A DNA stretch of 64,000 nt, from positions 480,001 through 544,000 of the forward strand of contig JAHQWG010000016.1 of assembly GCA_029856045.1 (NCBI GenBank), in the 5' to 3' direction. The position numbers were made by a program, and so were the translations under genes. This DNA comes from Promethearchaeia archaeon (GTDB lineage Archaea; Asgardarchaeota; Lokiarchaeia; Sigyniarchaeales; SOKP01). Below the pieces are notes generated by a model, which did no database searches, was not told the DNA's origin, and saw nothing but the letters and a program-made list of their open reading frames with translations. Of the stretch, positions 29,859 to 63,690 are shown piece by piece (within the stretch, counting starts at the first letter, position 1; every line of letters starts with the position of its first letter).

Positions 29859-29877
29859 CTTTTTTTAGTGCATTATT

Positions 29878-42149: not shown

Positions 42150-42457
42150 ATGAAACCACCATCTGATTATGAATTTAGTTATTTCTTAATAATTAACTCT
42201 AACAATTTTACTTCTTATAAATTTTTTTACAGATACAAATCATGGAAAGTCAAGTTATCGGCAAATTAATCCCTTTACTACAGGTTTTAATTTAATAATA
42301 AAATTTGGGTATAACCTATCTTCAAACCTATTACTACTTGTTTTATCTAACGTTATAAAAAAAAATATTAAAATTTAGAAATACTTTTAAGATTACCTTG
42401 ATAACTAGAAACTCCGTGTGCTCATTTTACTCAATAATACATAGATTATTTGACTAA

Positions 42458-44013: not shown

Positions 44014-44027
44014 AGATTTAACGATAT

Positions 44028-44714
44028 CTAATCCCCTCCCATTCCCAACTTCTTAAGTTTCTTGGTTTGTCGTTCGCCAAACATCTTTGTTATAGGGAAA
44101 GTAAAGATAAAGTATATAATCGCAACAACAACCATCGTTGGAGCCCAGAGCAGCGGATAATTAGCAGATACACGAAATGCCACCTTTAGCATCTCAATAA
44201 TTCCAAATCCATAGGCGTAGGACGAATCCTTGATGACCACCGCATATTCATTAGACCAGCTGGGTATTGCCAACCGTAGGGCTTGGGGCAACACAATGTG
44301 TCGAAAAGCTTGAAACTGGTTCATACCTAGTGCACGAGCAGCCATCATCTGCCCTGGGTCCACGGATAAGATAGCCCCGCGAAAAAGTTGAGATTGGTAA
44401 GCCCCACTGCGAAGGCCAAGCGCCAAAATTACGCCGAAAAACGGTCTCATAAGAGGGTCTATAAACCAAAATATACCCGGTATTCCAAAGACGAAGATGC
44501 TTATCAAAATCAGAAGTGGGATGCCGCGCAACACTTTCTCGTAAGCGCTCGCTATCCAACCGAGTTCTATACCGCCGTAGACACGCATTATTGCCAGCGA
44601 TAGACCTAGCACAAACCCCCCCAACAGACCTAGGGCAGTGAGTAATAAGGTTGTAGGCAATCCATTCACAAGAATATAAAAAAAAATAGAAGGGAGATCT
44701 GGCGTCTCCACCAT
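44028..44714 (-). CDS. Polar amino acid ABC transporter permease
   Basis: [34 protein letters not shown] motifs. Confidence 0.93.
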
Positions 44715-44724
44715 CACTCACCCC

Positions 44725-45510
44725 CTAAAACCACTTTGCGATGAGAGTATCCATCGTCCCGTCTTTAAAGGCTTCAAGCAGGGCTTTATTGATTGTCGCC
44801 ATCAATTCTGGTTCTTCCCATTTACACCATAATGCTGTAGGCTCAGCTGGTACTATAAAAATGGACTTGAAGCCGTATGCCGAATACTGGCCTAAGACTG
44901 GCTCGTCTATGAATGCTACATCGATACCACCAGCGTCTAAGTCGGCGAGCATTAAAAGTGCGCTAACGTATGACGCATAATCTACATTAGCGTCTGTTAA
45001 CTCTTCCTCTTGGGTGGTCCCCGCTTGACAACCGACCGATTTGTCGGGAAGAGCTGCTAAATCCTCTAATTTAGTAATTGTAAGGCTTGAATCACCCCTA
45101 ACAATGATTAATTCGTTTACACGAATGTAGGGCACGGAATGCGCGAGAACCTCTGCGCGTTTTGGAGTGACCATTATTGCGGCTGCAATCATATCGATTG
45201 TGCCTCCAGTACAAGCACCAACCAGCAAGTCAAAATCCATGTCTTTCCATTGGATAGTAACATTGAGTTCTGCTGCAACCAATTCTGATATGTCAATGTC
45301 GAAGCCTTCCAACTCTTCTGTTGTTGTATTGTAAATCTCGAAGGGTGGCCAATCAGAACTAGTTCCAACAATGATATAACCTCGCGCCTTAATCTGATCA
45401 ACTAGCGATACGCGTGTTACCCCAGCAAGAAATGGGGAAAAAAGCCATCCAGCTGCGAACCCTGCCACAACGCAGACTATTATCACTATTGCTGTAATTC
45501 CTTTCCTCAT
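44725..45510 (-). CDS. Polar amino acid ABC substrate-binding protein (family 3)
   Basis: N-terminal anchor, VGTS.DWPPFE, GFDID, T.KR...FS.PY-like motif, Q.GTTQE. Confidence 0.92.
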   Translation of the reverse strand: MRKGITAIVIIVCVVAGFAAGWLFSPFLAGVTRVSLVDQIKARGYIIVGTSSDWPPFEIYNTTTEELEGFDIDISELVAAELNVTIQWKDMDFDLLVGACTGGTIDMIAAAIMVTPKRAEVLAHSVPYIRVNELIIVRGDSSLTITKLEDLAALPDKSVGCQAGTTQEEELTDANVDYASYVSALLMLADLDAGGIDVAFIDEPVLGQYSAYGFKSIFIVPAEPTALWCKWEEPELMATINKALLEAFKDGTMDTLIAKWF

Positions 45511-45782
45511 TTTATTTCATTTCTTTTTATTTTATTTTAATTTATTTTATTAAATTTAATTTTTTTTATATAAATATTATATAAATATATAAAGATTTCG
45601 TTCTTTATTTATTAACTGTGAATTATCTTTAATCTCAAAATTTTTATTGCTCACCAACAAGATGTAGTATAAAACGTTAATTCATTAATTGCAACAGTAT
45701 TATAAAATATTAGATTGCATTATCATATATTTTGAGTATAAATCTAGATAAAAATGCTTAAAATCCCAATACGATGATTGGG

Positions 45783-45886
45783 AAAAAACAGTAACAGATA
45801 TCTTTTTATTTAACGCAACTCCTCCAAAAGATTTTTTTTCAAGAATAAAAAATGCAAATAGAAATAAGCTAGAATTAAATAAATAA
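45783..45886 (+). pseudogene. 3' fragment of a diverged allele of the GGR-family gene
   Basis: Encodes KTVTDIFLFNATPPKDFFSRIKNANRNKLELNK*, versus KTTTDIFLFNATPPKDFFSRIKKANFKF* in 39685-40872. Confidence 0.88.
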
Positions 45887-45922
45887 AAATGAAAATTCTT
45901 TCTCCATCTTCTTTATAATAAT

Positions 45923-47035
45923 TCAACTAATTTCTCGCAACAATTCATCAATTAGGTCTAAACCAGCTAAAAAATATTTTTTTTCAGAACCAATACCAAG
46001 GCGTATATAGTTGTCCATCCCGAAACAGTCGCCGGCTACAACAAAAACATCCTTTTCTTCCCTGAGTTTAGTGGAGAGCTCTGTGGAATTGATTTTTATA
46101 TTATACCGCAAAAATGCCATACCTCCTGCATGCGGGGGTATGAAATGAAAGAGCTCCTTATGATTTTTAACCCATTCCACTAATGTACCTAGATTTCCAC
46201 TCAATAATTTCCGATTACGACTTAATACTTTCTTTCTTAATTCGGGTTGCAAAACTAAAGTTGCAACACGTTGGCTAATAAGATTTGTAGCAATAGTTGT
46301 ATAATCACTATAACTCCATGCTTTCTCAATAAACTTTTTTAGTCCAACCAACCAACCAATCCTTAAACCTTGAAGCGCATAGGCTTTAGCGAGTCCGCCG
46401 TTTACAATAACTTTTTCATATTGTCCCCAAAAAGTAGGTGTTTCCTTACCACTTAATTCTGCACCACGGTATATTTCATCAACATATAACCAAACATTTG
46501 CCTTTCTCGCTAAATAAACAATAGATTTCATTGCTTCTTCACTTAATACAGCCCCTGTGGGATTATTCGGATTGCAGATGGCTATCATTTTTGTTTTGGG
46601 TGTTATTTGAGATTTTAATTCTTCGATATCAGGTTGCCAATTCAAATCTTCTTTTAGATGAAAGGGTTTAATTTTGACCCCAAAAGAACGAGCAAGTCCA
46701 AAAATTTGCATGTAGTTTGGCAACATGAATATTAATTCATCATTTGGTTCTAAAAGGCTCCAAATAGTTAAAAAATTTGCTTCAGCAGAACCATTTGTCA
46801 CTAAAACATTATCTATATCTGCCCCCAGATATAAAGAACTGATTGTTTTTCTTAATTCTACGGGACCATTTGTCTGACCATATCCAAGTCGCATGGAAAG
46901 TATTTTTTCTAATTCATCCTCGTTTAATAACTCTTTTAGTGAATAAGGGTGAACACCACTTTCAGTCAAATTGTATTTAACTGTATTTTCCCATAATGAT
47001 TGGGTTCTTTCAAGCATAAATTCTTCTAATTTCAT
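45923..47035 (-). CDS. Class I/II PLP-dependent aminotransferase
   Basis: NPNNPTG, DEIY, LAKAYALQGLRIGW (PLP Lys). Confidence 0.92.
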   Translation of the reverse strand: MKLEEFMLERTQSLWENTVKYNLTESGVHPYSLKELLNEDELEKILSMRLGYGQTNGPVELRKTISSLYLGADIDNVLVTNGSAEANFLTIWSLLEPNDELIFMLPNYMQIFGLARSFGVKIKPFHLKEDLNWQPDIEELKSQITPKTKMIAICNPNNPTGAVLSEEAMKSIVYLARKANVWLYVDEIYRGAELSGKETPTFWGQYEKVIVNGGLAKAYALQGLRIGWLVGLKKFIEKAWSYSDYTTIATNLISQRVATLVLQPELRKKVLSRNRKLLSGNLGTLVEWVKNHKELFHFIPPHAGGMAFLRYNIKINSTELSTKLREEKDVFVVAGDCFGMDNYIRLGIGSEKKYFLAGLDLIDELLREIS

Positions 47036-47085
47036 GAAATTTTCTCTTTTTTATCAATTTGATTTATTATAAAATTTTATCACTC

Positions 47086-48054
47086 CTAACTAGTAGATGG
47101 TAAAGATTCATATATTGCTTTTGAAATTTGAATATCTTGAACAGCCACTCCGGTTAAATCTGCAACGGTAATTTCTTCATCTGAAGCACGTTGCAATGTT
47201 TTATTAGAAATCATAACTCCTAATTCAATTAAATCTTCCTTATTAATCATACCATTTTTAATTGCACGAAAACATTCCCCACGTGATTGAGACTGATCGA
47301 TGCTGTCAACTATTACCCTATCTGCTTTTTTTAAGATTGCAGAATCTAACTCTTGTTTTTCGGGAGTATCCGATCCCATAGCTGTGATATGAGTACCTTT
47401 CTGAATTTGATCCGCATATATCAACGGAGTCTTTGAAGGTGTGCATGTGACGACAAAATTACAAGTCGAAGTTACATCCTCTGTATTTAAAGTCGTTTTA
47501 ATATTATAACCTAATAGGTCCATATCTTTTTTATATGCATCTAATTCCTGTTGCGTTATCCCACAGGCAATAACATCCTTACAATCTATAATAGTTTTTA
47601 AATATTGTAGCTGCATTCTTCCCTGAACGCCAGGACCAATAATTCCTATTCGATGAACCTTTTTTGGAGCCATATATTTAGCTACAACTGCACCCGCAGC
47701 CGCAGTTCTCACATTGGTAAGATGCCCCTCATCAAGTAAGATGCAAACTAATTCTCCTGTTTTTTGACTAAACAACAGCATAAGCCCACTATATCCAGGA
47801 AGCCCTATTTTTGGATTATCGTAAAACCCAGCAGCAATTTTAATAATATAATAATCATCTCCTTTAATGTATCCGTATTTAATATGGCAATCGCCCGGAG
47901 GATTCTCAAAAATCATTTCACCAATCGGGGGTACTACTACTTTACCCTGAGAATAAGCAACAAATCCTTCTTCAATTTTTTGTATCGGATCAATTGATTT
48001 CAAAATTTCTTTAATTTGTTCTAATTTTATTATTTTACTCATTTTTTTATTCAT
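47086..48054 (-). CDS. Ornithine cyclodeaminase/mu-crystallin family protein (EutC/imine-reductase-like)
   Basis: GFYDNP..GLP, LT.VRTAAAG, G.G.QG, HITAMGSD, DLTGVAVQD motifs. Confidence 0.9.
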   Translation of the reverse strand: MNKKMSKIIKLEQIKEILKSIDPIQKIEEGFVAYSQGKVVVPPIGEMIFENPPGDCHIKYGYIKGDDYYIIKIAAGFYDNPKIGLPGYSGLMLLFSQKTGELVCILLDEGHLTNVRTAAAGAVVAKYMAPKKVHRIGIIGPGVQGRMQLQYLKTIIDCKDVIACGITQQELDAYKKDMDLLGYNIKTTLNTEDVTSTCNFVVTCTPSKTPLIYADQIQKGTHITAMGSDTPEKQELDSAILKKADRVIVDSIDQSQSRGECFRAIKNGMINKEDLIELGVMISNKTLQRASDEEITVADLTGVAVQDIQISKAIYESLPSTS

Positions 48055-49211: not shown

Positions 49212-49778
49212 ATGTTTCAGGGATTTAATGAACAAATGTCAGCTTTAGTTTCACCTGTTAGATTTGATACATTTTCATCTTCTATCTTGTGTGAACTTAA
49301 AATAAAAAGTTCTGAGCAAATTAATCTTAATAAAGGTGATTTTGTTAAAATTTTTGGAAAAAAAAGGGTAACTGTATGCAAGATTAAAAAAATATCATAT
49401 GAACATAAAGATAATATTATATGCATTCCATATAAGATAAGAAATAAGTATGGCATTAATCTAAATGATTTCATACGAATTCAAACTTTTCCTAAAAAGA
49501 CTGCTAAATATGTCAAGATAACTCCAGTAGGTTTGGATTTTAAATCCACAAAAAAAATAATTAAATATATTAGAAAAAAGCTTTTAGACATGCCATTGGT
49601 AAAAAATGATATAATCTCTATTAATATTGGTTTTAGAAGACATATTGATTTCGAAGTTTTGAATATTCAACCCACAAGTCCTGCACAAATATCTACAGGT
49701 ACTGTTTTTGATATGGTTTTATCATATCATCAAGAAAAGAAAATTAAGGAAAAACTAATTTTAACTCTAACTATTTAA
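49212..49778 (+). CDS. Stand-alone CDC48 N-domain-like protein (no ATPase)
   Basis: Aligns by eye with the local CDC48 N-domain: L..GD.V.I, I.I...IR...GI...D.IRI, A..V...P, L...P...NDII, F.V....P...QI...T. Confidence 0.72.
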   Translation: MFQGFNEQMSALVSPVRFDTFSSSILCELKIKSSEQINLNKGDFVKIFGKKRVTVCKIKKISYEHKDNIICIPYKIRNKYGINLNDFIRIQTFPKKTAKYVKITPVGLDFKSTKKIIKYIRKKLLDMPLVKNDIISINIGFRRHIDFEVLNIQPTSPAQISTGTVFDMVLSYHQEKKIKEKLILTLTI

Positions 49779-50716
49779 ACATTTTTTAATTGCCAAATTT
49801 TAATTGTTTTGTCTAAACTCCCGCTTATTATATAATATTTAGGAGCTTGAGTTTTGTATTGTTCAATTTTAATTAATTTTATTGATTCAATTTTATCCTC
49901 ATGAGCAGGAATTTTCAATATTTCTTGAACTGGTGAAATTGAATAAATATATAAATTGGTACCTCCTAATATTAAAAAAAATCTTCCATCATTTTGAAAT
50001 ATCTCTAACGAATTTAAAGGTTCTTCAAGTTGTTTGGAAAATAATAATTTAATATTGTTGATATCCCAGCCAAATATCCCTCCATAATTATCAATTCCAA
50101 CTAGGAGATTTTGATTCGATATAAATTTAAGATCCATAATTGGACCTTCTCCTCTTAGAAACATTTTCTCTTCATTCATTTTCAAGTCCCATAGTATTAT
50201 TTTAGAGTCAAAAGTTCCTAAAAATAACGTTAATTCGTTTTCTGTGCAAGAAATTGAAAGAATAGGAGAATTATATTCATCAATACTTGATAAGATGTGG
50301 AAATATTTAAGATCCCAAAATATAATTTGACAATCAAATCCAGTCGAAATTAATTGATTCGATTTTTCAAGATAAAAAAGTTTTTGAACATAATCTAAAT
50401 GACTTTCTAAAGATAAATCACAATACAATGTATTTGCCTTATTCTCCCAGATTTTTATAGTCTTATCTAAGCTAGATGAAAAAAGAGTCGAATATTTCTT
50501 AATAAACAGTATATCGGTTATCCATTTCTTATGTGCATTGATAGAATTTAATAGTTTTGGTGTTCCAATAGAATTATCTTTATTTATATTTAAATCCCAA
50601 ATTTTTATCGTTTTATCTAATGATCCACTATATAAAATCCCCTTTTCTTCATCATAAGCTAAAGAACTTATCCCTAATGCATGTTCCTGTAATTGATAAA
50701 TTTGAGATAACTCCAT
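49775..50716 (-). CDS. WD40-repeat beta-propeller protein
   Basis: About 7 repeats of H...I......SGS.D.TIKIW(D). Confidence 0.92.
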   Translation of the reverse strand: MELSQIYQLQEHALGISSLAYDEEKGILYSGSLDKTIKIWDLNINKDNSIGTPKLLNSINAHKKWITDILFIKKYSTLFSSSLDKTIKIWENKANTLYCDLSLESHLDYVQKLFYLEKSNQLISTGFDCQIIFWDLKYFHILSSIDEYNSPILSISCTENELTLFLGTFDSKIILWDLKMNEEKMFLRGEGPIMDLKFISNQNLLVGIDNYGGIFGWDINNIKLLFSKQLEEPLNSLEIFQNDGRFFLILGGTNLYIYSISPVQEILKIPAHEDKIESIKLIKIEQYKTQAPKYYIISGSLDKTIKIWQLKNV

Positions 50717-52287: not shown

Positions 52288-52734
52288 CTAAAAATTTCTA
52301 TCTTCCTTTATAGAGCGTAGAACCACACAAACACTTTCGACTTGTTCTATATCTCCTCTTGCCTTGAATGATTCGACTAAAGCATCTAATTCTGCTAAAT
52401 CCGAGACATTTACTTTAATTAATAACCCACATCTTCCCGCTAAAGAGAAAATCTCAGCCAATTCTGGATATGGTCTTATATCTCTTATTAAATCTTTTAA
52501 ATTCTCAGATTTAGGGATTAGCGTCAGAAATGCACTGATTTTTTTTTCATCAAGATCTTCAGCTAACATAATTGTGAATTTATCAATGACTCCTTCTTCT
52601 TGAAGTTTAATGACTCTCTTTCTCACTGTGGATTCCGAGAGACCCACTTCATCCGCAATCTCTCTATATGGTCTTCTGGAATCTTCCATTAGCATTGTGA
52701 TTATTTTTCTATCAGTTTTATCTAATTTTTTCAT
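52288..52734 (-). CDS. Lrp/AsnC-family transcriptional regulator
   Basis: LD..DR.I...L..DSR....EIA..VGLS..TV..RV..L...GVI plus RAM domain. Confidence 0.95.
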   Translation of the reverse strand: MKKLDKTDRKIITMLMEDSRRPYREIADEVGLSESTVRKRVIKLQEEGVIDKFTIMLAEDLDEKKISAFLTLIPKSENLKDLIRDIRPYPELAEIFSLAGRCGLLIKVNVSDLAELDALVESFKARGDIEQVESVCVVLRSIKEDRNF

Positions 52735-52783
52735 CTTCGAAATAAACGCTCTGTTTGCTTTAATCTTTTAATTTTTATTAGTT

Positions 52784-53716
52784 TTATCTAAATTCCTTCA
52801 GTAAGGGCTCAAATAAGCGTTCATAATGGACTGCCATACAATGAATTCCTGCCGCGGCTGTAGATTTCTTAATCTCACGAATAAATGGAACAAAGAATTC
52901 AAGGTTTATCTCATCGATTTTTACTTTTCTTTCCTTTTTATCCTTAATGTTTTTCTTCACATGCTTTAAATTTTTTAGTAAATCTTCTGGAACTGACACT
53001 CCTGGTATAAATTTGTCGAAGTACGAAGCAATACCGTAATTTTTTAATGGGAATAATCCTAATAAAATTGGACAATTATATCGTGACAATTCTTTAATAA
53101 AATCTTTTGCATCATCTATATCAAATGCAGTTTGAGTTTGTATATAATCTGCACCAACTGCTACTTTTCTTCCGACCTTAAGAATTTCTGCTTCTCTGGG
53201 ACTTGCATTTGGATTGGCTGCAATCCCTACATTCATCTCAACTTTTCCAGTTTCAATTTCATTTCCATATATATCCGTATTCTCATCAATCATTTTACCT
53301 AGTAGATAAACAAATTGGGTAGAATCCAAATCATATACGGACTTCGCGCCGGGATTATCACCTAAGGCACTGTGATCACCAGTTAGAGCAAGTACATTTT
53401 TAATTCCTACACAAGCGGCAGCTAAGATATCCCCAAATAATGCAATACGATTTCTATCACGAACAGTCATCTGATATACTGTTTCAAGACCAACCTTTTC
53501 TTGAACTAGATATGATGGGATTAAACTATTAATATATGCCATTCCTTGTGGACCGTCAGTAACATTAGCTGCCACAACATATTCTTTCATAGCTTCTGCC
53601 GAGTGAATGATTTCACTTATATCAACCATTTTGGTTGGTTCAAGCTCTCCAGTAAAGACAAATTTGCCAGTTTTTATTTCCTTCATCAGATTACTGAAAG
53701 CTGGACGATCTCCCAT
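52784..53716 (-). CDS. metF: Methylenetetrahydrofolate reductase MetF (copy 1)
   Basis: TGELEP, NVTD, QMTVRDRNR, LALTGDH, K...GADYIQTQ, GIH.M motifs. Confidence 0.9.
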   Translation of the reverse strand: MGDRPAFSNLMKEIKTGKFVFTGELEPTKMVDISEIIHSAEAMKEYVVAANVTDGPQGMAYINSLIPSYLVQEKVGLETVYQMTVRDRNRIALFGDILAAACVGIKNVLALTGDHSALGDNPGAKSVYDLDSTQFVYLLGKMIDENTDIYGNEIETGKVEMNVGIAANPNASPREAEILKVGRKVAVGADYIQTQTAFDIDDAKDFIKELSRYNCPILLGLFPLKNYGIASYFDKFIPGVSVPEDLLKNLKHVKKNIKDKKERKVKIDEINLEFFVPFIREIKKSTAAAGIHCMAVHYERLFEPLLKEFR

Positions 53717-53717
53717 T

Positions 53718-54413
53718 TTACTTCTCCACCTCCTCTTCTTCTATTGCATTGGTATATTCTTGGATTAACTCCAAATGACCAGGTGATGTCATTAATCGAT
53801 AATCCTTTGGGGGCCTAAATTTATTAAAAAGGTCCAACCTATTAAACTTTTTTAATCGTTCGTAAATTTGTATCCATGCACAAGGATATTTATATCCTCC
53901 TACTTCGCAAAAACCGTCAACTTGTCCACCGCATGGACCATTATGGAGCCCTTTCGCGCAACTAGCTACTGGACAAATTCCCGCTGTTTCACCAAGCAAA
54001 CATTCTCCACAAGTATCACAATATTGTTCATAACGATTATCCCCGTGATTTTCAGAAGCTCCAAACATACTATCTTGAGCTGGAAAGGTAAGTGTATCCT
54101 CAAAAATCCTATTGAGCATAGAAACACCTAATCCACATGCAAGTGATACAATTGCCTCATATTCATCTAGATAGGGTCTAACTGTTGAGCCTGCAATTCT
54201 GTCATCACATTGTCGTAGTACTGTCATTGCTTTCCATGTCAATTTTTTACCATTCATTTTTGATTTAAGTTCCAACATTTGGCCTAAAACTTTTGCTTCG
54301 TTTATACTTCTTGGAGGTTGACAACAACCATCACAACCTGCAATGAGGATCTTTGAATATGGTTTAATCATTTCATAGATCTCATCAATATCTTTTAGTT
54401 TTGTAATTATCAT
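53718..54413 (-). CDS. metV: MetV (MTHFR Fe-S/Zn small subunit, copy 1)
   Basis: GC.GC, RQCD, ACG.G, C..CG.C.L..T.GICP...CAKGL.NGPCGG...G.CEV, CAW..IYERL. Confidence 0.9.
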   Translation of the reverse strand: MIITKLKDIDEIYEMIKPYSKILIAGCDGCCQPPRSINEAKVLGQMLELKSKMNGKKLTWKAMTVLRQCDDRIAGSTVRPYLDEYEAIVSLACGLGVSMLNRIFEDTLTFPAQDSMFGASENHGDNRYEQYCDTCGECLLGETAGICPVASCAKGLHNGPCGGQVDGFCEVGGYKYPCAWIQIYERLKKFNRLDLFNKFRPPKDYRLMTSPGHLELIQEYTNAIEEEEVEK

Positions 54414-54511
54414 CTATCTACACATTTTTAGTTTTTTCTCACAACTTAATATTTTAAAATATATTATCTTTTTTGATTAAATTTTTTTACTTATAAAACA
54501 AATTAAATAAT

Positions 54512-55399
54512 TTAAATTTCTATTTTCAATTTTTCCAGTAATTTTCTTGGTTTAATTGCTCTTTTCATTATGTCCATATTTTCACTTTTTGGATTGATTC
54601 CAAATGCTAGAGCCATAATCTCTGGTAAATGGATAACTGGAATCTCCATCGGTTTATCTGATTTTCGTGCAATTTTTCTTCCATGTAAATCATATTGACT
54701 TGTACATGCTGGGCAGACTGTTATTAGAGCATCTATTTGATTTTTAACCAAATCATTAAATTTTATCTCGCATAAGTTATCTCCAATATCTTCATTTAAC
54801 CTTGCACAATAACCGCAACAAGTGACTTTTTCAGCATATTGTTTAACCTCAGCACCTAATGTCTTTAAAATTTTATCCATCACTTCAGGACGTTCGGGAT
54901 CATCGAATTCCAAAATTTTACTTGGTCGAATTAAATGACATCCTGGATGTGAAGCTAATGTTATGCCTTCCAATGGAACTTTTACCGAATCCTTTATTTT
55001 TTCTAACATTTTTTTATCCGAAAGAATTTCTGTGATATGATATACCTTAGATGTTCCTCTAAATTCATAACCAATTTTACCTAAAATTTCATTAACCATG
55101 TCAAAGTATCTTTTATCTCTTTTTAACATCACATGAACGGTTTTTAATGTTTCAAAACATCCTGAACAAATAGTCATCACATTCAATCCCATCTTTTCTG
55201 CAATACAAAGATTCCTTGCACCTATTGTTAACCATGTTTCTATTCCTAACGATTGGATGGCAACAGGATCTGGGCAACAACTTGCTCCGTGCATCTCTTT
55301 TAATCCTATGCCTAAAATCTCACAATCCTTTCTAGCTGCTGCTTCTAATTGTGGAGATCTTAAAGGTATCATACATCCTAAGAAAAATGCATAATCCAT
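54512..55399 (-). CDS. hdrB: Heterodisulfide reductase subunit B
   Basis: Two CCG domains: FLGC, CCP, C.GC; GCH, CCG, CP.C. Confidence 0.93.
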   Translation of the reverse strand: MDYAFFLGCMIPLRSPQLEAAARKDCEILGIGLKEMHGASCCPDPVAIQSLGIETWLTIGARNLCIAEKMGLNVMTICSGCFETLKTVHVMLKRDKRYFDMVNEILGKIGYEFRGTSKVYHITEILSDKKMLEKIKDSVKVPLEGITLASHPGCHLIRPSKILEFDDPERPEVMDKILKTLGAEVKQYAEKVTCCGYCARLNEDIGDNLCEIKFNDLVKNQIDALITVCPACTSQYDLHGRKIARKSDKPMEIPVIHLPEIMALAFGINPKSENMDIMKRAIKPRKLLEKLKIEI

Positions 55400-55953
55400 T
55401 ATGTCTTAACCTCCTTTTTTTTTCCTTTCTTAGCATCTTCAAGAATTTTTTTTAGCCCTGTCTCTTTAACAATAAATTCAATTTCTTCTAAATTTGGTGT
55501 AACAATCTCTGGTAAATTAAATTTTTCTCTGTTTCTATCAATAGATTTTTTCATCATTCCAGCATAAGGGACCGTGAATCCATGTTCTAGGAGATTATTT
55601 ATGGTTATTTCATATTCTGGTGGCATATTTCCCTCCTTTACAGCCATATTTCGTAACAATGCTAGTATAAATGAATAATCTACATTTTTTGGACACCGTT
55701 CGGTACAGCGATGACATAAAGAGCAATACCATATTGCGTTACTATTAAGGATTTTATCTTTTAAACCCAGCAATAGACAAGCAACAACTCTATGGGGCTG
55801 TAAATCTATATACTCCGATACTGTACAGCTACTACTACAGATACCACATTGAATGCATGCTAAAAGAGATTTAGCGCCAATCTGATTACTAATCTGGTAT
55901 CTTAAATCAGAAATTAAATCTGTTGATTTAATTATTTCTTGTGTTTTTTCCAT
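55399..55953 (-). CDS. hdrC: Heterodisulfide reductase subunit C
   Basis: CIQCGICSSSC and W.CSLCHRCTERCP 2x[4Fe-4S] motifs; TAATG coupling to hdrB. Confidence 0.93.
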   Translation of the reverse strand: MEKTQEIIKSTDLISDLRYQISNQIGAKSLLACIQCGICSSSCTVSEYIDLQPHRVVACLLLGLKDKILNSNAIWYCSLCHRCTERCPKNVDYSFILALLRNMAVKEGNMPPEYEITINNLLEHGFTVPYAGMMKKSIDRNREKFNLPEIVTPNLEEIEFIVKETGLKKILEDAKKGKKKEVKT

Positions 55954-55954
55954 T

Positions 55955-58900
55955 TTATGCCTTCACCTCCGGTGTTAAAGGACCTATTTCTTTAACTTTA
56001 TTTATAAATTCTTTCATAACCTCTGCAAATATTTTACCTTCACTCGCTGAAATCCATTCAAGCCGGAGTCTTTCAGTGTCAATACCTAATTTTGTAATTA
56101 TATTTTTAATCTCATTAACTCTCCTTAATGTATCATAATTTCCCGCAATATAATGGCAATCACCAATGTGACACCCACCAATAAATACCCCATCAGCTCC
56201 GTTCAAAAATGCTTGTAAAATGAAACTTTTAGGAAGGCGTCCAGAACACATTACTCTTATTGGTCTGACATTTGTTGGGTATTGAAATCTACTCACTCCG
56301 CATGTATCTGCACCTGCATAACTACACCAATTACAGAGAAAAGCTACAATTCTTGGGCGTTCATCTACAAAATCGCCTTTCACAGCTTCAATGATCATGG
56401 GCTCAATTTGTTCGTCACTAAAGTGGCTCATTGTAATTGCATCTGCTGGACATTCTGCAGAACAATCACCACACCCTTTGCATAATAGTGGATTTACTTC
56501 AGAAATCATCTTACTACCATCAAGAGGAACTCCTATTGCACCAAAACTGCAAACTTCAGCACATCTATTACAACCAATACATAACGCAGGATTCACATGA
56601 GAAATAATGGGCTCATTTTCTACTTCTCCTGTTATTAATGGAATTAATGCATGAGATGCTGCAGCTCGTCCTTGACTAATCGAATCAGCAATACCCTTTG
56701 GACCATGTGCAGTACCACATAAGAATATTCCATCCGTTGCAAAATCAATTGGTCTTAATTTGATATGTGCTTCAAAAAAGAATCCATGTTCATCAAGTGG
56801 AACTTTTAATAACTCTGCCAATCTTTTATTTCCTTCGTTTGGAATTAATGGTGCAGATAAAACGACTTTATCAGCCTTAATATGCAAATTTGTTTGAGTT
56901 AACATATCATGTACTTTTACAGTTATATTATCATCATTAAAATCCAACTCAGGATATTCTGAAAATCGAAGATAATTAATATTTTCTCTCGCTTTCCAAT
57001 AATATTGCTCTTCCTCAGTTCCAATTCTAATATCACGATATAATACAAAAATATTCGAATTAGGATAATTTTCTTTCACATACAATGCATGACGTATAGA
57101 TTCACTACAACATATGAGAGAACAATAAGTCCTTCCCGTTTCTTGTCTTGAACCGACACAGTGAATGAATACCAAAGTTTCTCCATCTTTTAATTCATTA
57201 TTGCGTAATTTCTCTGATAATTCTAATTGCGTAAAAACCCTTGGATCTTTCCCGTAATTATACCAATCCGTAGGTTTATATTCTGAAGCACCAGTTGAAA
57301 CTATAATAGCACCAACATTGACCTCTGTACGTTTTTTATCTGAATCTTCAATTGTGACTGTAAACTTACCGATTGATCCCTTTACATCAATGACATTTGA
57401 AGATAAATATACATTGATATTTTTCTTATCCTCATTAACCTCCTTGATAACTTTTGAAATAAATTCTCTGGAATCAATTCTATCAAAATTTATTTTGTAT
57501 ATAAGATTCAATTGACCTCCCAACTTATCCTCTTTTTCGACTAAATGAACTTTTAAACCGTGTTTTGCTATTTCTAAAGCTGCACTCATTCCACTTATAC
57601 CACCACCAATAACTAACGCTTCACGTACTACTTCTCCCTTAATTTTATACTCTGCACGTAAATTTCTAGCTCTTGCGACCCCCATTCTTATTAAATCTTT
57701 AGCCTTATCAGTCGCTTTTGCCATATCATTCATATGAACCCAAGAATCAAGTTCCCGAATACTCACGAAATTAAACAAATACGGATTTAACCCAACTTCA
57801 AGTAATGTATTTTGAAATAAGGGTTCGTGAGTTCTAGGAGTACAAGCGGCTACAATGACTCGATTTAAATTTTCTTCTACAATTTTTTCTTTTATTATCT
57901 CTTGTGTTTTTTCAGAACAACTATACATATTATACATTGCAAAAACAACATTAGGAAGCGTCTTTACATATTCTACAATTTCTTCAATATTCATATATCC
58001 CCCGATATTTGTGCCACATTCACATACAAAAACCCCAATTTTCGGTTCATCAAATGGAGAAATATATCTTAACGGGGGCAATTCTAATACTTTTTCCTCT
58101 TCAGGGATTGGAATTGCATACTGTGCAGCTAAAGCTGCAGCACCACTGGCTTTCGCTACTGAATTTGCAATATCATCTGGACTTTGACATGAACCTGTAA
58201 TAAATATACCTGGGATAGTAGATTTCAAATCTTCTAATGAATTTGCTGTTTTAAAGAATCCCAAATCATTAATTTCAATTCCAAGTATTTTGGCTAATTC
58301 TTTAGCATCTTTTCTTGGAATTACCGCGTTAGCCAAAATAACTAAATCAAACGTTTTTTCTTCTACTTCACCAGTATCTAAGTTTGCGTATTTAACTATT
58401 AAGTCATGAGTGATTGGGTCTTCTCTTATATCTCCGGGAATTCCCCGATTATATTTAACTCCATATTCCTCTTTTGCACGTTCAATAAATTCCTCTTGAT
58501 TTTTTCCAATAGTTCTTGTATCATTAAAGAATATTGTTGCAGAAACATCTGCAGCATGCTCTCTTGCAACAACGGATTCCTTGACCATATACATACAACA
58601 GAATTTAGAACAATATGCACAGATATCTACATTTCTTGAACCTACGCATGCAATAAATGCTAGATTTTTTGCGTGCTTTTTATCAGATATTCGAATTATC
58701 TCACCTCCAGTAGGTCCAGAAGCGCTTAATAATCGTTCAAACTGCATTCCAGTAATAATATTTTTATATTCACCGTAGTGATATCGAGCTAAAATACTCG
58801 GATCAATTAAATCAAAACCTGTTGCAACAATAATCGAAGCTATACCATATTCAATAATTTCATCTTTTTGTTCAAAATCGATTGCATCTGCAGTACATAC

Positions 58901-59401
58901 ATCAAGACATAGTTTACAAGCATTTTTTGTCAACCATAAACACTTTTCAGGGTCAACTGTTGCTTTTCGTGGAACCGCCTGAGGAAATGGAATGTATATA
59001 GCTCTTCTATCTCCCATACCTTCTTCAAATTCATTAGGTATTTTTCTCATTGGACATTTCTCAGAACACTCTTCACAGCCTGTGCATTTATCTACATCTA
59101 CATATCGTGCTTTTTTTATTACTTTCACTTTAAAATCTCCAACTTTCCCCGAAACTTCACTAACTTCTGAATATGTTAAAAGTTCAATATTAGGATGTCG
59201 CGCAACTTCAACCATTTTAGGAGCTAAAATGCAAATAGAACAGTCTAAAGTAGGAAATGTTTTATCCAATTGAGCCATTCTTCCTCCGACAGAAGGAGAT
59301 TTCTCCACTAATATCACGCGATATCCTTGTTCGGCTAAATCTAAAGATGCACTTATTCCCGAAATTCCACCACCAATAACTAAAATATTACTGCTTTTCA
59401 T
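55955..59401 (-). CDS. hdrA: Tandem HdrA-HdrA-MvhD fusion flavoprotein
   Basis: Two GGGISG FAD domains, two CVGSR...YCS..CC motifs, ferredoxin inserts, C-terminal MvhD (FLCNWCSYAGAD, RVMCSGR, GC..GDCHY, W.SASE). Confidence 0.93.
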   Translation of the reverse strand: MKSSNILVIGGGISGISASLDLAEQGYRVILVEKSPSVGGRMAQLDKTFPTLDCSICILAPKMVEVARHPNIELLTYSEVSEVSGKVGDFKVKVIKKARYVDVDKCTGCEECSEKCPMRKIPNEFEEGMGDRRAIYIPFPQAVPRKATVDPEKCLWLTKNACKLCLDVCTADAIDFEQKDEIIEYGIASIIVATGFDLIDPSILARYHYGEYKNIITGMQFERLLSASGPTGGEIIRISDKKHAKNLAFIACVGSRNVDICAYCSKFCCMYMVKESVVAREHAADVSATIFFNDTRTIGKNQEEFIERAKEEYGVKYNRGIPGDIREDPITHDLIVKYANLDTGEVEEKTFDLVILANAVIPRKDAKELAKILGIEINDLGFFKTANSLEDLKSTIPGIFITGSCQSPDDIANSVAKASGAAALAAQYAIPIPEEEKVLELPPLRYISPFDEPKIGVFVCECGTNIGGYMNIEEIVEYVKTLPNVVFAMYNMYSCSEKTQEIIKEKIVEENLNRVIVAACTPRTHEPLFQNTLLEVGLNPYLFNFVSIRELDSWVHMNDMAKATDKAKDLIRMGVARARNLRAEYKIKGEVVREALVIGGGISGMSAALEIAKHGLKVHLVEKEDKLGGQLNLIYKINFDRIDSREFISKVIKEVNEDKKNINVYLSSNVIDVKGSIGKFTVTIEDSDKKRTEVNVGAIIVSTGASEYKPTDWYNYGKDPRVFTQLELSEKLRNNELKDGETLVFIHCVGSRQETGRTYCSLICCSESIRHALYVKENYPNSNIFVLYRDIRIGTEEEQYYWKARENINYLRFSEYPELDFNDDNITVKVHDMLTQTNLHIKADKVVLSAPLIPNEGNKRLAELLKVPLDEHGFFFEAHIKLRPIDFATDGIFLCGTAHGPKGIADSISQGRAAASHALIPLITGEVENEPIISHVNPALCIGCNRCAEVCSFGAIGVPLDGSKMISEVNPLLCKGCGDCSAECPADAITMSHFSDEQIEPMIIEAVKGDFVDERPRIVAFLCNWCSYAGADTCGVSRFQYPTNVRPIRVMCSGRLPKSFILQAFLNGADGVFIGGCHIGDCHYIAGNYDTLRRVNEIKNIITKLGIDTERLRLEWISASEGKIFAEVMKEFINKVKEIGPLTPEVKA

Positions 59402-59472
59402 AATAACTCAATTTTTTTCAAGGTTTTTTAAAATTAAATCAAATTATTTAATAGTTAATACTAAATTAAATT

Positions 59473-59488
59473 AATTAAGTACTTAATT
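59473..59488. promoter_or_regulatory. Perfect 16-bp palindrome AATTAAGTACTTAATT upstream of hdrA
   Basis: Lies about 20 nt downstream of a minus-strand TTTAAATA (59509-59516), i.e. over the expected TSS. Confidence 0.4.
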
Positions 59489-59997
59489 TTATACAAGATC
59501 GTTAGTTATATTTAAAATTTATTCTTTTTTTTGTAAAATTTCGATTTTTTTAGTAATTCTTTTTCCTATTTTTGTATATAATTAATAAAAAGTATATTAT
59601 TGACTTATTAAAATGAGAAAAAAAATATGCTCTAATTTGATCTTTTATGATAAATTTAATGGCGAGATCTAAAAATAAAATTTAAAATCCTCGACATAAT
59701 TTTTAAATTATTTTAAAGATTGATTTATTAATCTCAAGGTTGATCTGTTAATTGCTAGAATGATATGTTTAATATTAGAATTATTAAATGTATATTATCA
59801 ATGATATAAAAATTAATTTCAAATATGACTCTTTTTTGAGTTTTTGAAATAAGATATTATTTGATCTTTTCCAAAATTGATCATTTTATTATCGTAACTT
59901 AAAATTAAAATTATCAAAAAACTTAAATTGACTATTTTATTTTCCTACATAGTTATTCTATTATAATTATAAAAAGAAAAAGAATATTGTCGTAAAT

Positions 59998-60663
59998 ATG
60001 ATTGTTACAACTAAAAAAGATTTTGAAGAAATTGAAGATGCACTAAAAAGCTATAACAATATTATGTTGATATATTGTGGTACATGTTCTGTTACTTCTC
60101 AATGTTCAGATGAAAAATCTGTAAATGAAATGTTGGAAAATCTCAAAAATGCAGGAAAAAACGTAGTTTATCATCAAGAGTTTAAAGAACCTTGCGATTT
60201 TAGACAGGATCTTCAAGATTGGAGGAATGTTCCACAAGAGGCCTTAGATAAAGTTGATGCATTTCTCATTTTATCTTGTGGAGCTGGTCTTCAAGCAATG
60301 CTTGATTTGTTTGATAGAAAAAACATTGCTAAGCCAATCTTTATAGGTTTAAATACGCATGGAATTGCTGAAACCGAACGTATCGGTCGTTTTCACGTAA
60401 AATGTGCTGGTTGTGGTGATTGTTTGTTAAATTACACCGGTGGAATATGTCCAGTAACCTCTTGCGCAAAAGGTCTAATGAACGGTCCTTGTGGCGGTCA
60501 ACTCGATGGCAAGTGCGAAGTAGGAAAATACGAAAAGGATTGCGGGTGGATTTTAATATATGAGCGTTTGAAAAAAATTGGGCGTTTGGATTTATTTGGA
60601 CAGCTTAGACCTGCTTTCAATTGGGCTGATAGAGGTCATCAAAAAAGTGTAGTATTTAGGTAG
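59998..60663 (+). CDS. metV: MetV (copy 2)
   Basis: CGTC, CD, SCGAG, CAGCGDC.L.YTGGICP...CAKGLMNGPCGG...GKCEV. Confidence 0.9.
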   Translation: MIVTTKKDFEEIEDALKSYNNIMLIYCGTCSVTSQCSDEKSVNEMLENLKNAGKNVVYHQEFKEPCDFRQDLQDWRNVPQEALDKVDAFLILSCGAGLQAMLDLFDRKNIAKPIFIGLNTHGIAETERIGRFHVKCAGCGDCLLNYTGGICPVTSCAKGLMNGPCGGQLDGKCEVGKYEKDCGWILIYERLKKIGRLDLFGQLRPAFNWADRGHQKSVVFR

Positions 60664-60677
60664 GAGGTTAGAAAAAA

Positions 60678-61610
60678 ATGGCAGAAAAAAAAGTTTATTC
60701 AAAATTGGGCGAAATGTTAGCTAAAGGAGAATTTATTTTAACTGGAGAATTGGAGCCAGAAAAAACTTGTGACCTCTCTCATACAATTCAGGAAGCTAAG
60801 GAAATGGCGCCTTATGTGGTAGCTGCAAATGTAACTGATAGTCCTTTAGGGATCGTTACAATTAATTCATTGGCAGCTTCTCATATCATCCAAAAGGAAG
60901 CAAATATTGAGGTTATTTGGCAATTAACCGTTAGAGATGTTAACAAGCTTGGCATTGCTGGCATGATCATGGGCGGACACGCTTTGGGGTTAAGAAATAT
61001 CCTCTCACTCACTGGGGATCATCCTAACATGGGTGACATGCCTGAAAGCAAACCAGTTTTTGACCTTGATTCCGCAACATTATGCATGCTTGTGAGGGAA
61101 ATGGTCGACAAGGGCACAATAAACGGTTACGAGATCGAGTCTCCTCCAAAGTTTCATGTTGGGGCTGCTGCAAACCCCAATTCGAACCCCATGGAGGCGG
61201 AAGTCTTGAAAATTGGGCGTAAGGTAGAGGCGGGATGCGAATTTATTCAAACCCAAGTTGCGTATGATCTCGAAAAAACAATAGAATTTCTTACCGCACT
61301 TAAAAAATATAACATTCCAGTGTTATTGGGCATCTTTCCAATGAAGTCGTACGCTATGGCAAAAGGTTTTGATACTTTTGTTCCTGGAGTTGATGTACCT
61401 AAGGACATTCTTGCGAAATGGAAATCCATCAAAAATGATTATAAAACGGACAAATCCAAGCAAAAAGAAATGTATGACCAAGCTAACTATGAATTTTTCA
61501 ACCCTTTCATAACAGAGCTCAAGAAAAAAGAATTATTAGGTGGCGTTCATTGTATGGCTGTTCATTATCCGCGCATATTTCCGAAATTAATAGAAGTAAT
61601 TAAGGATTAA
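60678..61610 (+). CDS. metF: Methylenetetrahydrofolate reductase MetF (copy 2)
   Basis: TGELEP, ANVTD, QLTVRD.N, LTGDH, FIQTQ, GVH.M; co-linear with copy 1. Confidence 0.9.
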   Translation: MAEKKVYSKLGEMLAKGEFILTGELEPEKTCDLSHTIQEAKEMAPYVVAANVTDSPLGIVTINSLAASHIIQKEANIEVIWQLTVRDVNKLGIAGMIMGGHALGLRNILSLTGDHPNMGDMPESKPVFDLDSATLCMLVREMVDKGTINGYEIESPPKFHVGAAANPNSNPMEAEVLKIGRKVEAGCEFIQTQVAYDLEKTIEFLTALKKYNIPVLLGIFPMKSYAMAKGFDTFVPGVDVPKDILAKWKSIKNDYKTDKSKQKEMYDQANYEFFNPFITELKKKELLGGVHCMAVHYPRIFPKLIEVIKD

Positions 61611-61800: not shown

Positions 61801-63690
61801 ATGAAAGACTTTGATTTAGATAACCTAACTGAAACAACAAAAACCCTTTTATCTGAAGAAGATCTCCAAAAATTGGGTGCTCTTAAGAACCCAAAAATAT
61901 TTAAAATTGTAAATGAATTTGTAGATTTATTAAAACCAGCGAAAGTTACAGTAATTACTGATAATCCAAAAGAAATTGAATATGTCCGCCAAGGTGCGCT
62001 TAGGGAGGGGGAAGAAGAAAAGTTGACTATGGAAGGTCATACAATCCATTATGATGGGTATTATGACCAAGCCAGAGATGTAGGAAATACTGCTGTATTA
62101 ATACGGAAAGGAACTAAATTAAGTAAAGTAATTAATACAAAAAGTAGAGAAGAAGGATTAGATGAAATATTTCAGATTATGGATGGTTTAATGAGAGGTA
62201 AGGAAGTTCTTGTTCGTTTTTTTTGTCTTGGTCCAACAAATTCTCGTTTTTCAATATGTGCTCTCCAATTAACAGATTCATTTTATGTTGCTCATTCTGA
62301 AGATCTCTTATATAGAACAGGATATGAAGAGTTTAAACGTCTTAAAGGATCTGAAGACTTTTTTTATTTTATTCACTCAGCGGGACCTTTAGAAAAAAAT
62401 GTTTCAAAAAATATCGATGATAGAAGAATCTATATTGACTTAAAAGAAAGTCGTGTTTTATCTGTAAATAATCAATATGCAGGTAATAGCATAGGTTTGA
62501 AGAAGTTAGCATTAAGACTTGGAATATATAAAGCAAATCATGAGGATTGGTTAACAGAGCATATGTTTATTATGGGTGTAAAACCTGAGAGGAAAAATCG
62601 CATAACTTATTTTACTGGTGCTTATCCAAGTGCATGTGGGAAAACATCTACTGCAATGATTCCCGGACAACAAATTGTTGGAGATGATATTGCTTACATT
62701 AGAGAAGATAATGAAGGATATACTCGTGCAGTCAATATAGAGTCAGGAATTTTTGGAATTATAAGAGATGTTAATGAGATTGATGATCCATTAATTTTTA
62801 AAGCCTTAAAATCACCAAGAGAATTAATTTTTTCTAATGTGTTAATTAATGATGGAACTCCATATTGGCTTGGTGATGGTCGAAAACCGTTAAAATCGGG
62901 AACTAACCACTCTGGTGAATGGTTTGAAGGAAAGAAAGATAAAGAAGGAAATAAAATTCCTCTTGCGCATCCTAACGCTCGTTATACAATGAGAATAAAA
63001 GAGCTTGAAAATTTTGATCCCGCATTAAATGATCCAGACGGAATCAGAGTGAGCGGTATTTTATATGGGGGTAGAGATTCAGATACATCGGTACCAATTC
63101 TTGAAAGTCTTAATTGGGAGCATGGAGTATTTTATGGCGCAATTATTGAGTCTGAATCTACTTCTGCAACTCTTGGAAAGGTTGGGGTAAGAAAAGCGAG
63201 TCCGATGGCTAACTTAGATTTTATGGTTATTCCTTTAGGGTTATACCTTGAAAATCATCGAAAATTTGGAAATCGATTAACTCATTGTCCAAAAATTTTT
63301 GCCACAAATTATTTCTTAAAAAAAGATGGTAAATATTGTAATGGAATGCTTGATAAGAAAGTTTGGGTTTTATGGGCAGAGGGTAGGTGTCATGGTGAAT
63401 TTAATGCAATAAAAACACCCATAGGATTTATTCCAAAATATGAAGATTTAAAAGAACTCTTCCGAACTGTTCTAAATCAAAAATATAAAGAAGAAGATTA
63501 CAATTATCAATTCTCAATTCGCGTTTCTAAATGGTTAGAGAAATATGATCGAATGGAAAAAATGTATCAAGAAGAAATTCAAATACCTAAATTTTTCTGG
63601 AGATTATTAAAATCCCAAAAAAAGGAAATTCTTGAAATAAAACAGAAATTTAATTTGAATATTATTCCGCCAAATTACTATTCTAATTAA
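61801..63690 (+). CDS. pckG: Phosphoenolpyruvate carboxykinase (GTP)
   Basis: YAGNS.GLKK, EHM, AYPSACGKTS, VGDDIA, HPNARY, YGGR, NYF motifs. Confidence 0.95.
   Translation: MKDFDLDNLTETTKTLLSEEDLQKLGALKNPKIFKIVNEFVDLLKPAKVTVITDNPKEIEYVRQGALREGEEEKLTMEGHTIHYDGYYDQARDVGNTAVLIRKGTKLSKVINTKSREEGLDEIFQIMDGLMRGKEVLVRFFCLGPTNSRFSICALQLTDSFYVAHSEDLLYRTGYEEFKRLKGSEDFFYFIHSAGPLEKNVSKNIDDRRIYIDLKESRVLSVNNQYAGNSIGLKKLALRLGIYKANHEDWLTEHMFIMGVKPERKNRITYFTGAYPSACGKTSTAMIPGQQIVGDDIAYIREDNEGYTRAVNIESGIFGIIRDVNEIDDPLIFKALKSPRELIFSNVLINDGTPYWLGDGRKPLKSGTNHSGEWFEGKKDKEGNKIPLAHPNARYTMRIKELENFDPALNDPDGIRVSGILYGGRDSDTSVPILESLNWEHGVFYGAIIESESTSATLGKVGVRKASPMANLDFMVIPLGLYLENHRKFGNRLTHCPKIFATNYFLKKDGKYCNGMLDKKVWVLWAEGRCHGEFNAIKTPIGFIPKYEDLKELFRTVLNQKYKEEDYNYQFSIRVSKWLEKYDRMEKMYQEEIQIPKFFWRLLKSQKKEILEIKQKFNLNIIPPNYYSN

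Follow-up and report, generated by a model that had tools for sequence, protein, structure and literature searches.

The Hdr-MetVF locus

The 64,000-nucleotide (nt) stretch of Asgard archaeal DNA analysed here, hereafter the window (G000:C27:480001-544000), belongs to a genome of 3.34 Mb in 55 contigs, rated 100% complete and with approximately 29% G+C. It contains an operon that joins a heterodisulfide reductase (Hdr) module to MetV and MetF, the two subunits of a reductase acting on one-carbon (C1) units. Six co-directional open reading frames (ORFs) on the minus strand fill positions 59401-52288, according to the ORF listing and to Pfam and NCBIfam domain searches, and a second pair of metV and metF genes lies divergently beside them:

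59401..55955, minus strand: hdrA-hdrA-mvhD fusion, a single ORF of 1148 amino acids (aa); PF02662 175 bits, NF040770 (HdrA2) 1200 bits
55953..55399, minus strand: hdrC, 184 aa, two [4Fe-4S] motifs; TIGR03290 98 bits
55399..54512, minus strand: hdrB, 295 aa, two CCG domains; TIGR03288 270 bits
54414..54511: hdrB-metV spacer, 98 nt, AT-rich
54413..53718, minus strand: metV1, 231 aa, iron-sulfur subunit (DUF5981); PF12225 104 bits
53716..52784, minus strand: metF1, 310 aa, flavin TIM-barrel reductase subunit (methylenetetrahydrofolate reductase, MTHFR); PF02219 106 bits
52734..52288, minus strand: lrp/asnC-family regulator, identified by domain search
59402..59997: divergent intergenic region between hdrA and metV2, 596 nt, AT-rich
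59998..60663, plus strand: metV2, 221 aa, paralogue of metV1 (41% identity)
60678..61610, plus strand: metF2, 310 aa, paralogue of metF1 (47% identity)

The junctions are tight at hdrA/hdrC (1-nt gap), hdrC/hdrB (1-nt overlap) and metV/metF (1-nt gap), and longer at hdrB/metV (98 nt) and metF/lrp (49 nt); oligo-T runs lie 3' of the lrp stop codon. An initial annotation, made from the letters of this DNA, had described the same gene set, co-directional and in the same order, with junctions within 1 nt at hdrA/C, hdrC/B and metV/F and an Lrp gene downstream. Our coordinates and domain matches agree with it on each of these points, save that what it listed as two hdrA genes with mvhD has that content in one fused gene. 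Its attribution to a probable Asgard archaeon is likewise borne out by MetF homologues of about 70% identity, which are named Promethearchaeota, Lokiarchaeota or other Asgard lineages. A scan for bacterial-type promoters and terminators, which is ill-suited to an archaeon, gave 38 promoters where 41.7 were expected and no terminators, and an Rfam scan of the window gave no matches; the 98-nt spacer may or may not hold an internal promoter.

The metV2-metF2 pair (59998-61610, plus strand), which the earlier description did not include, diverges from hdrA across the 596-nt region. These two metVF pairs are the only ones in the genome, and HdrA-like genes occur at approximately ten other loci. 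Next after metF2 is a gene for GTP-dependent phosphoenolpyruvate carboxykinase (PEPCK; 61801-63690, plus strand), a homologue of which lies 1-2 kb from Hdr-MetVF in eight relatives (L042, L048, L051, L053, L054, L056, L057 and L058). Those homologues are 61-65% identical, or 95% in a same-genus genome, and PEPCK is also found near MetV2F2 in L060 and L061.

Domain anatomy and cofactor sites of the Hdr module

We compared the HdrA fusion and HdrB by alignment with the solved Mvh-Hdr complex (PDB 5ODC), which divides the fusion into three parts:

58082..59401, minus strand: HdrA unit 1, residues 1-440; thioredoxin-reductase-like flavin adenine dinucleotide (FAD) domain with an inserted ferredoxin domain
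56387..58081, minus strand: HdrA unit 2, residues 441-1005; N-terminal Cys-rich HdrA domain, second FAD domain and C-terminal ferredoxin domain
55955..56386, minus strand: MvhD domain, residues 1006-1148 plus the stop codon; C-terminal to HdrA, PF02662 175 bits

The two HdrA units are asymmetric. Unit 1 is without the N-terminal HdrA domain (residues 5-376 of the fusion match 5ODC HdrA 145-511), and has the DCSIC motif, containing the equivalents of Cys194 and Cys197, together with both markers of a bifurcating flavin, E222 and the lysine in YMVKES; the corresponding HdrA marker residues are E356 and K409 (PMC9430772). In unit 2, residues 451-611 match the N-terminal domain (5ODC HdrA 2-162) and residues 873-1000 the C-terminal ferredoxin domain (516-643), residues 594-919 being similar also to the sHdrA-like chain 6TJR. 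Its FAD domain (approximately 594-870) has neither the inserted ferredoxin domain nor the DCSIC motif, and arginine replaces the marker lysine. A "complementary" fused HdrA, defined by complementary loss of Cys197 and the N-terminal domain, has been described (PMC9012536), and the present fusion fits that pattern, as unit 1 keeps Cys197 and unit 2 supplies the N-terminal domain. The fused protein would then be a pseudo-dimer with one complete bifurcation-type site. A GltD-type NAD(P)H domain found no match in the fusion and would have no room there, since two HdrA units and MvhD account for all 1148 residues.

The remaining cofactor sites are well preserved. The MvhD domain scores 179 bits to the MvhD-related chain 8RVU_F (approximately 175-179 bits to solved MvhD chains) and has five cysteines shared by all of 17 orthologues; in HdrB, whose alignment to 5ODC_B scores 218 bits, none of the ten cysteines that make up the two CCG non-cubane cluster motifs is missing; and MetV1 has 12 invariant cysteines in the orthologue alignment. 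Complex prediction from orthologue alignments of the MvhD domain and MetV1 gave a score of 0.30 against a mark of 0.32, and so speaks neither for nor against binding.

Conservation of the linkage between Hdr and MetVF

Conservation was assessed by looking for MetV in a phylum sample of 201 genomes and by mapping 20-kb regions with the window proteins. MetV is present in 102 of the 201 genomes and in all 40 of the window's family, where 33 of the 40 have a MetV1-type copy (63-97% identity), most of them with a MetV2-type copy as well. Hdr genes lie immediately upstream of metV1-metF1, and lrp downstream, in every one of the 16 family genomes with enough flanking sequence, and the genomic wiring of an Hdr module to MetVF, as first proposed from the window by itself, is therefore conserved. 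Twelve of these 16 loci share the window's gene order. The other four read hdrC-hdrB-hdrA-hdrA::mvhD-hdrAA::mvhD-metV1-metF1-lrp, with metV1 beginning 17-38 nt after mvhD and with a paralogous HdrAA next to metV1 (45-50% identical, as against approximately 70% otherwise). The same arrangements are seen in independent assemblies. Among relatives with the window's order the hdrB-metV spacer measures 35-154 nt and is always AT-rich, which fits the presence of an internal promoter as well as its absence. Further afield, one genome of a different family (G025) has metV-metF-hdrAA::mvhD-hdrC-hdrB with two canonical mer genes behind, HdrA::MvhD occurs 3-8 kb from metVF in three more families, and in several families no Hdr gene lies within 10 kb. 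No Hdr genes belong to the MetV2F2 pair itself, which is mostly found 5-15 kb away from the Hdr-linked pair or else on a different contig; metF2 is more conserved within the family (74-85%) than metF1 (64-71%).

Two Bathyarchaeota contigs (JGI 3300014914 and 3300014887) show related neighborhoods. The first (L074) carries ftr, metF and metV, then, divergently, polyferredoxin::MvhD, metV and metF; the second (L075) has a gene for a NiFe-hydrogenase small subunit after metF. MvhD-type adaptors beside archaeal MetVF are not confined to Asgard archaea.

Partner modules at other Hdr loci of the window's genome are FrhB, an NfnA-like protein or NiFe hydrogenases, and the window's Hdr locus encodes no such input module (hydrogenase, FrhB or formate dehydrogenase). 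MetVF may be regarded as one more plug-in module; and as no other input module lies at the locus, it would take the place of the module that docks through MvhD in methanogens.

Alternatively, the genes could be adjacent without their products forming a complex. MetV1F1 would then work alone with ferredoxin, like the clostridial MetFV dimer, and the Hdr genes would encode an independent, Hdr2-like enzyme that is co-regulated or simply a neighbor. Such an arrangement would accommodate the 98-nt spacer, the observation that Sporomusa ovata MetVF does not co-purify stably with Hdr (PMC9430772), the existence of MetV2F2 and of several Asgard families without nearby Hdr genes, and the swapping of the HdrAA paralogue beside metV1 in some genomes. 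We nevertheless judge it distinctly unlikely, given linkage at all 16 family loci, the recurrence of these parts, differently ordered, in a second family, the mere 17-38 nt between mvhD and metV in the second arrangement, and the lack of any other input module at a locus of a kind that elsewhere in this genome always has one.

The same genome has another two large Hdr blocks, each with MvhD and a double HdrA (G000:C36:197000-216000 and G000:C44:45000-62000), one of which runs on into polyferredoxins, an NfnA/DHODB-like FAD/NAD protein and FrhB, while the other starts with two FrhB genes and an HdrBC fusion. The Hdr modules of this organism look modular, each with a different partner.

Phylogenetic placement of MetF

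A search of 1.84 billion cluster representatives with MetF returned only a handful of clusters at 48-52% identity, named Lokiarchaeota/Promethearchaeota and Bathyarchaeota, and all others were at most 43% identical; the nearest non-Asgard cluster, at 52% identity, is from Bathyarchaeota. MetF1 scores 57 bits against the TIGR00676 equivalog (cut-off 294), and MTHFR structures in the PDB match it only at E = 1e-6 to 1e-11. Trees were built with FastTree (187 rows) and with IQ-TREE (LG+C20, quick search; 78 rows), with support values that are SH-like (Shimodaira-Hasegawa) only; Moorella and Sporomusa sequences were not included, and the outgroup, Escherichia coli MetF, sits on a very long branch in both. 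MetF1 and MetF2 belong to an archaeal clade (SH-aLRT, the corresponding approximate likelihood-ratio test, 94) with most Asgard families and Bathyarchaeota. This clade excludes the representatives of Clostridioides, Calderihabitans, Brocadia, Thermodesulfobacteriota and Methanococcoides (Methanosarcinaceae), and the MetF of one Asgard family (f7) groups with the bacterial/Methanosarcinaceae type. Within the clade, the sister of the MetF1 group (support 100) is one that unites MetF2 with the MetF of families f18 and f2 (SH-aLRT 97), from which it follows that the F1/F2 duplication is older than the family; the same topology rules out a recent tandem duplication as the origin of the two genes.

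Chadwick et al. (2022) put Asgard MetF in an ANME-1-type clade (ANME, anaerobic methanotrophic archaea), proposed to act on tetrahydromethanopterin (H4MPT; PMC9012536), and our trees agree with that placement. MetF did not group with stand-alone NAD(P)H-dependent MTHFRs, the placement that the initial annotation had set against an Hdr-linked role. Its description of the operon as acetogen-like holds for gene content, but not for the lineage of MetF, which is that of an archaeal clade with Bathyarchaeota, nor for HdrA, which is without the GltD insert of Moorella.

Two unusual architectures appeared among the MetF homologues. P0129 (541 aa) has approximately 240 extra residues N-terminal to MetF and is possibly a MetV-MetF fusion; P0133 (1038 aa), in the clade of the Thermodesulfobacteriota representative, has an N-terminal MetF followed by approximately 740 more residues.

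The one-carbon carrier

Neither Fhs nor McrA was found in the window's own genome, which encodes the following enzymes of H4MPT-linked C1 metabolism and of coenzyme F420 synthesis:

Mch: 365 bits
F420-dependent Mtd: 359 bits
FwdA: 768 bits
Ftr: present, interrupted by a contig end
CdhC (CO dehydrogenase/acetyl-CoA synthase, CODH/ACS): present
Beta-ribofuranosylaminobenzene 5'-phosphate (beta-RFAP) synthase, the committed step of H4MPT synthesis: 312 bits
CofH (F420 synthesis): 453 bits

A Wood-Ljungdahl branch of the tetrahydrofolate (THF) type is not encoded. The folate-dependent, THF-type route on which the operon had originally been placed is not supported; an H4MPT branch (FwdA, Ftr, Mch, Mtd, beta-RFAP synthase and CofH) takes its place in a genome in which Fhs was not found. 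Of the genes named at that stage as informative, folD is present and fhs and mcr were not found, the latter in keeping with the original view of the organism as a non-methanogen.

Canonical Mer is the only hole in the encoded H4MPT branch. The best matches in the genome reach 134-150 bits, where the cut-offs are 276 and 349; generic F420-dependent luciferase-like families match them equally well, and they share only 28-29% identity with canonical Asgard Mer. Canonical Mer was found in none of 41 window-family genomes, compared with 53 of 201 across the phylum sample; Mch is present in 59 of 61 genomes of the family. Fourteen genomes from five other Asgard families have canonical mer at a distance of 0.3-7.3 kb from metVF, and it is co-directional with metVF in G025 and G038; on a Bathyarchaeota contig ftr adjoins metVF and a polyferredoxin::MvhD gene. 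The notion of MetVF as a simple Mer replacement across all Asgard archaea was rejected, as many families have both.

In light of these data, a methylene-THF reductase of the kind found in Moorella and Sporomusa, serving a THF-type Wood-Ljungdahl pathway, methyl oxidation or the anabolic supply of methyl-THF, seems unlikely. Pfam and NCBIfam do label MetF as MTHFR, FolD (220 bits) and a pterin enzyme of the dihydropteroate synthase (DHPS) type (199 bits, above cut-off) are encoded, Methanosarcinaceae use MetVF with tetrahydrofolate for biosynthesis (PMC9012536), and fhs, folD and metF have been reported in cultured Lokiarchaeia (PMC12222021). Without Fhs, however, formate has no entry to a THF branch; neither folD nor folP clusters with metVF in this genome, and the neighbors of metVF in other archaea are mer or ftr rather than fol genes; MetF1 and MetF2 stand apart from the Methanococcoides and clostridial representatives; and a step that is purely anabolic would hardly seem to call for an Hdr module.

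It is also conceivable, if very improbable, that Mer-like proteins of the luciferase family are the true methylene-H4MPT reductases, and that Hdr-MetVF does other work, such as oxidizing the methyl groups of methylated or methoxylated compounds. Two such proteins are encoded (G000:C32:95569-96399 and C32:124822-125820), with Mer as joint best NCBIfam match, in a genome with F420 biosynthesis and F420-dependent Mtd, and Mer and MetVF coexist in many Asgard families; but the scores are below half of the Mer cut-offs, the identity to canonical Asgard Mer is low, and no methyltransferase system lies at the locus.

One of the Mer-like, F420-type luciferase-family genes is itself directly upstream of hdrC-like and hdrB-like genes (G000:C32:123322-127320), which may be another connection of a Mer-family enzyme to an Hdr-type thiol module. 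Elsewhere in the window, positions 27846-33699 (plus strand) encode a ChlD/ChlI-like AAA+/VWA protein and then a 1273-aa CobN-type chelatase; this pair suggests a cobalt (or nickel) chelatase for tetrapyrrole cofactors, which bears on the corrinoid protein of CODH/ACS. In G038, a eukaryotic-type topoisomerase IB with Topoisom_I_N, Topoisom_I and C-terminal domains (L031:12933-14429, minus strand) sits 1.5 kb from the mer-metVF cluster of that other Asgard family.

A putative Hdr-coupled reductase at the Mer step

With moderate confidence, we propose that the product of the operon is a MetVF reductase coupled to Hdr, which converts methylene- and methyl-H4MPT into one another in place of the F420-dependent Mer that is absent from the family. 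The genes present, their domain anatomy and cofactor ligands, the conserved synteny, the genome context and the phylogeny are shown above; formation of a complex, H4MPT as substrate, ferredoxin and disulfide partners, and flavin-based bifurcation are inferences. In such a complex, the flavin protein MetF would act on the C1-pterin and the iron-sulfur protein MetV would hand electrons to the [2Fe-2S] MvhD domain fused to HdrA. The asymmetric double HdrA would offer one complete bifurcating-type flavin site with a ferredoxin-docking insert, coupling the C1 couple to ferredoxin and to some disulfide/dithiol at HdrBC. Three ports are envisaged: the C1-pterin would be served by MetF, ferredoxin by the inserted ferredoxin domain of HdrA copy 1, and the disulfide by HdrB. 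In the reductive, acetogenic direction, reduced ferredoxin and a dithiol would jointly reduce methylene-H4MPT; in the oxidative direction, methyl-H4MPT would be a mid-potential donor, the electrons of which are split between ferredoxin and the disulfide.

The methylene-/methyl-H4MPT couple lies at about -320 mV, between CoM-S-S-CoB (the heterodisulfide of coenzymes M and B) at about -140 mV and ferredoxin at about -500 mV. With these values, reversible bifurcation or confurcation would be thermodynamically balanced with H4MPT. The THF couple has a potential of -200 mV (PMC8515935), such that a folate-linked C1 couple would instead be a high-potential acceptor.

Several points weigh against an Hdr-coupled, H4MPT-dependent enzyme. 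The FolD and DHPS-type enzymes are encoded, and some folate-type chemistry or a folate pool may be retained, as in Methanosarcina. Either of the two Mer-like proteins could be a divergent Mer, and coexistence of Mer with MetVF in many Asgard families means that MetVF does not simply replace Mer throughout. Seven of the 40 family genomes are without the Hdr-linked pair yet keep MetV2F2, and the Hdr-linked copy is therefore not the sole candidate for the Mer step. The gap between hdrB and metV is AT-rich and 98 nt long. Moreover, in an organism without Mcr the disulfide substrate of HdrBC would not be expected to be that of methanogens.

MetV2F2 is probably an uncoupled isoenzyme. Tentatively, and with more doubt than certainty, the two MetVF isoenzymes could be pictured as running the Mer step of the H4MPT Wood-Ljungdahl pathway as a redox gearbox, with MetV2F2 uncoupled, MetV1F1 Hdr-coupled, and methyl-/methylene-H4MPT as the couple of middle potential in a flavin-based bifurcation, with ferredoxin on one side and some thiol/disulfide on the other. 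If true, this would be a type of bifurcating enzyme that still awaits biochemical demonstration, and a candidate site of energy coupling in an archaeal lineage related to the eukaryotic host. More broadly, Loki-type Asgard archaea have repeatedly been modelled as H2-dependent acetogens or syntrophs, with the methylene-to-methyl step treated unevenly, as Mer in some reconstructions and as MTHFR in others (10.1101/826495, PMC12222021, PMC11291895). In a family that lacks canonical Mer, the conserved Hdr-MetVF operon is a concrete candidate both for that step and for its energy coupling.

Other features of the window

Positions 41169-48054 stand out in composition (G+C 0.35-0.42, against 0.22-0.33 around them) and encode a pyridoxal phosphate-dependent enzyme, a four-gene ATP-binding cassette (ABC) transporter of amino-acid type (permease, ATPase, permease, binding protein), an aminotransferase and an ornithine cyclodeaminase; this region may be an acquired island for amino-acid uptake and catabolism. 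At 49212-50716, a gene for a CDC48-N-like protein (188 aa) converges with one for a 313-aa WD40 beta-propeller protein, a pair that is typical of the "eukaryote-like" content of Asgard genomes and unrelated to the operon.

Comparison with known systems

The closest characterized counterpart is the Hdr-type, six-subunit methylene-THF reductase MetFV-HdrCBA-MvhD of Moorella thermoacetica and S. ovata (Mock et al., 2014; PMC9430772, PMC8515935, PMC6085437). The two share all six functions, with co-directional genes and metV standing directly upstream of metF; HdrA has two flavin domains; and the cofactor motifs of HdrB, HdrC and MvhD are kept. The Asgard operon differs in that MvhD is fused to HdrA, and in that HdrA copy 1 keeps the inserted ferredoxin domain, which is missing from the HdrA-like C-terminal part of the Moorella and S. 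ovata proteins (PMC9430772). Moorella HdrA has an additional ferredoxin domain in its N-terminal part and an NAD(P)H-binding GltD insert (PMC9430772), the latter without equivalent in the Asgard protein. Asgard MetF belongs to the archaeal clade and shares only 33-41% identity with bacterial representatives; H4MPT rather than THF is indicated by the genome context; and beside the Asgard operon stands another metVF pair, which lacks Hdr genes of its own. The MetF representative of Calderihabitans (Moorellaceae) was considered as a bacterial Hdr-type locus and set aside, since it proved to be another paralogue, whose neighbors are a short MetV and a two-component system but not Hdr. For MetV2F2, the ferredoxin-dependent heterodimeric MetFV of Clostridium ljungdahlii (PMC8515935, PMC8760232) provides a model, as metV and metF stand alone there and have no NAD(P)H site, although its substrate is THF and its MetF is of another clade (the Clostridioides representative falls outside the archaeal one).

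Among archaea, MetF of the ANME-1/Bathyarchaeota/Asgard type has been proposed to replace Mer, and MetFV-HdrA-MvhD clusters have been reported in Ca. Syntrophoarchaeum (Chadwick et al., 2022; PMC9012536). The Asgard locus resembles the ANME-1-type set in MetF clade, in the adjacency of MetV and in the missing Mer within an otherwise present H4MPT branch, and it resembles the fused HdrA of that study in the complementary loss of Cys197 and the N-terminal domain. Unlike here, ANME-1 MetF is not clustered with Hdr, and the Asgard organism is without Mcr; unlike both ANME-1 and Syntrophoarchaeum, the Asgard cluster includes hdrC and hdrB, conserved family-wide together with lrp. The MvhAGD-HdrABC complex of hydrogenotrophic methanogens (5ODC, 8RVU) is matched by HdrA (714 bits), HdrB (218 bits) and MvhD (approximately 175 bits), and one half of the fused HdrA retains every cluster ligand and bifurcation marker. 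In contrast to that complex, the Asgard HdrA is a fused pseudo-dimer, MetVF occupies the place of the MvhAG hydrogenase genes, and CoM-S-S-CoB is not an expected substrate because Mcr is missing.

A survey of 2018 recorded one archaeal instance only of this complex type (PMC6085437), and we found no published description of the Asgard Hdr-MetVF operon in the openly searchable literature, subscription papers lying outside the search. The operon is an archaeal variant of the Hdr-type MTHFR of Moorella and Sporomusa. It extends known work rather than founding a new category, because the kind of enzyme is known from bacteria and the archaeal exchange of Mer for MetF, with HdrA and MvhD nearby, has been discussed for ANME-1 and Syntrophoarchaeum (PMC9012536). 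In retaining the ferredoxin-docking insert and having no NADH site, the archaeal form narrows the hypotheses on the partner of the bacterial Hdr-type MTHFR.

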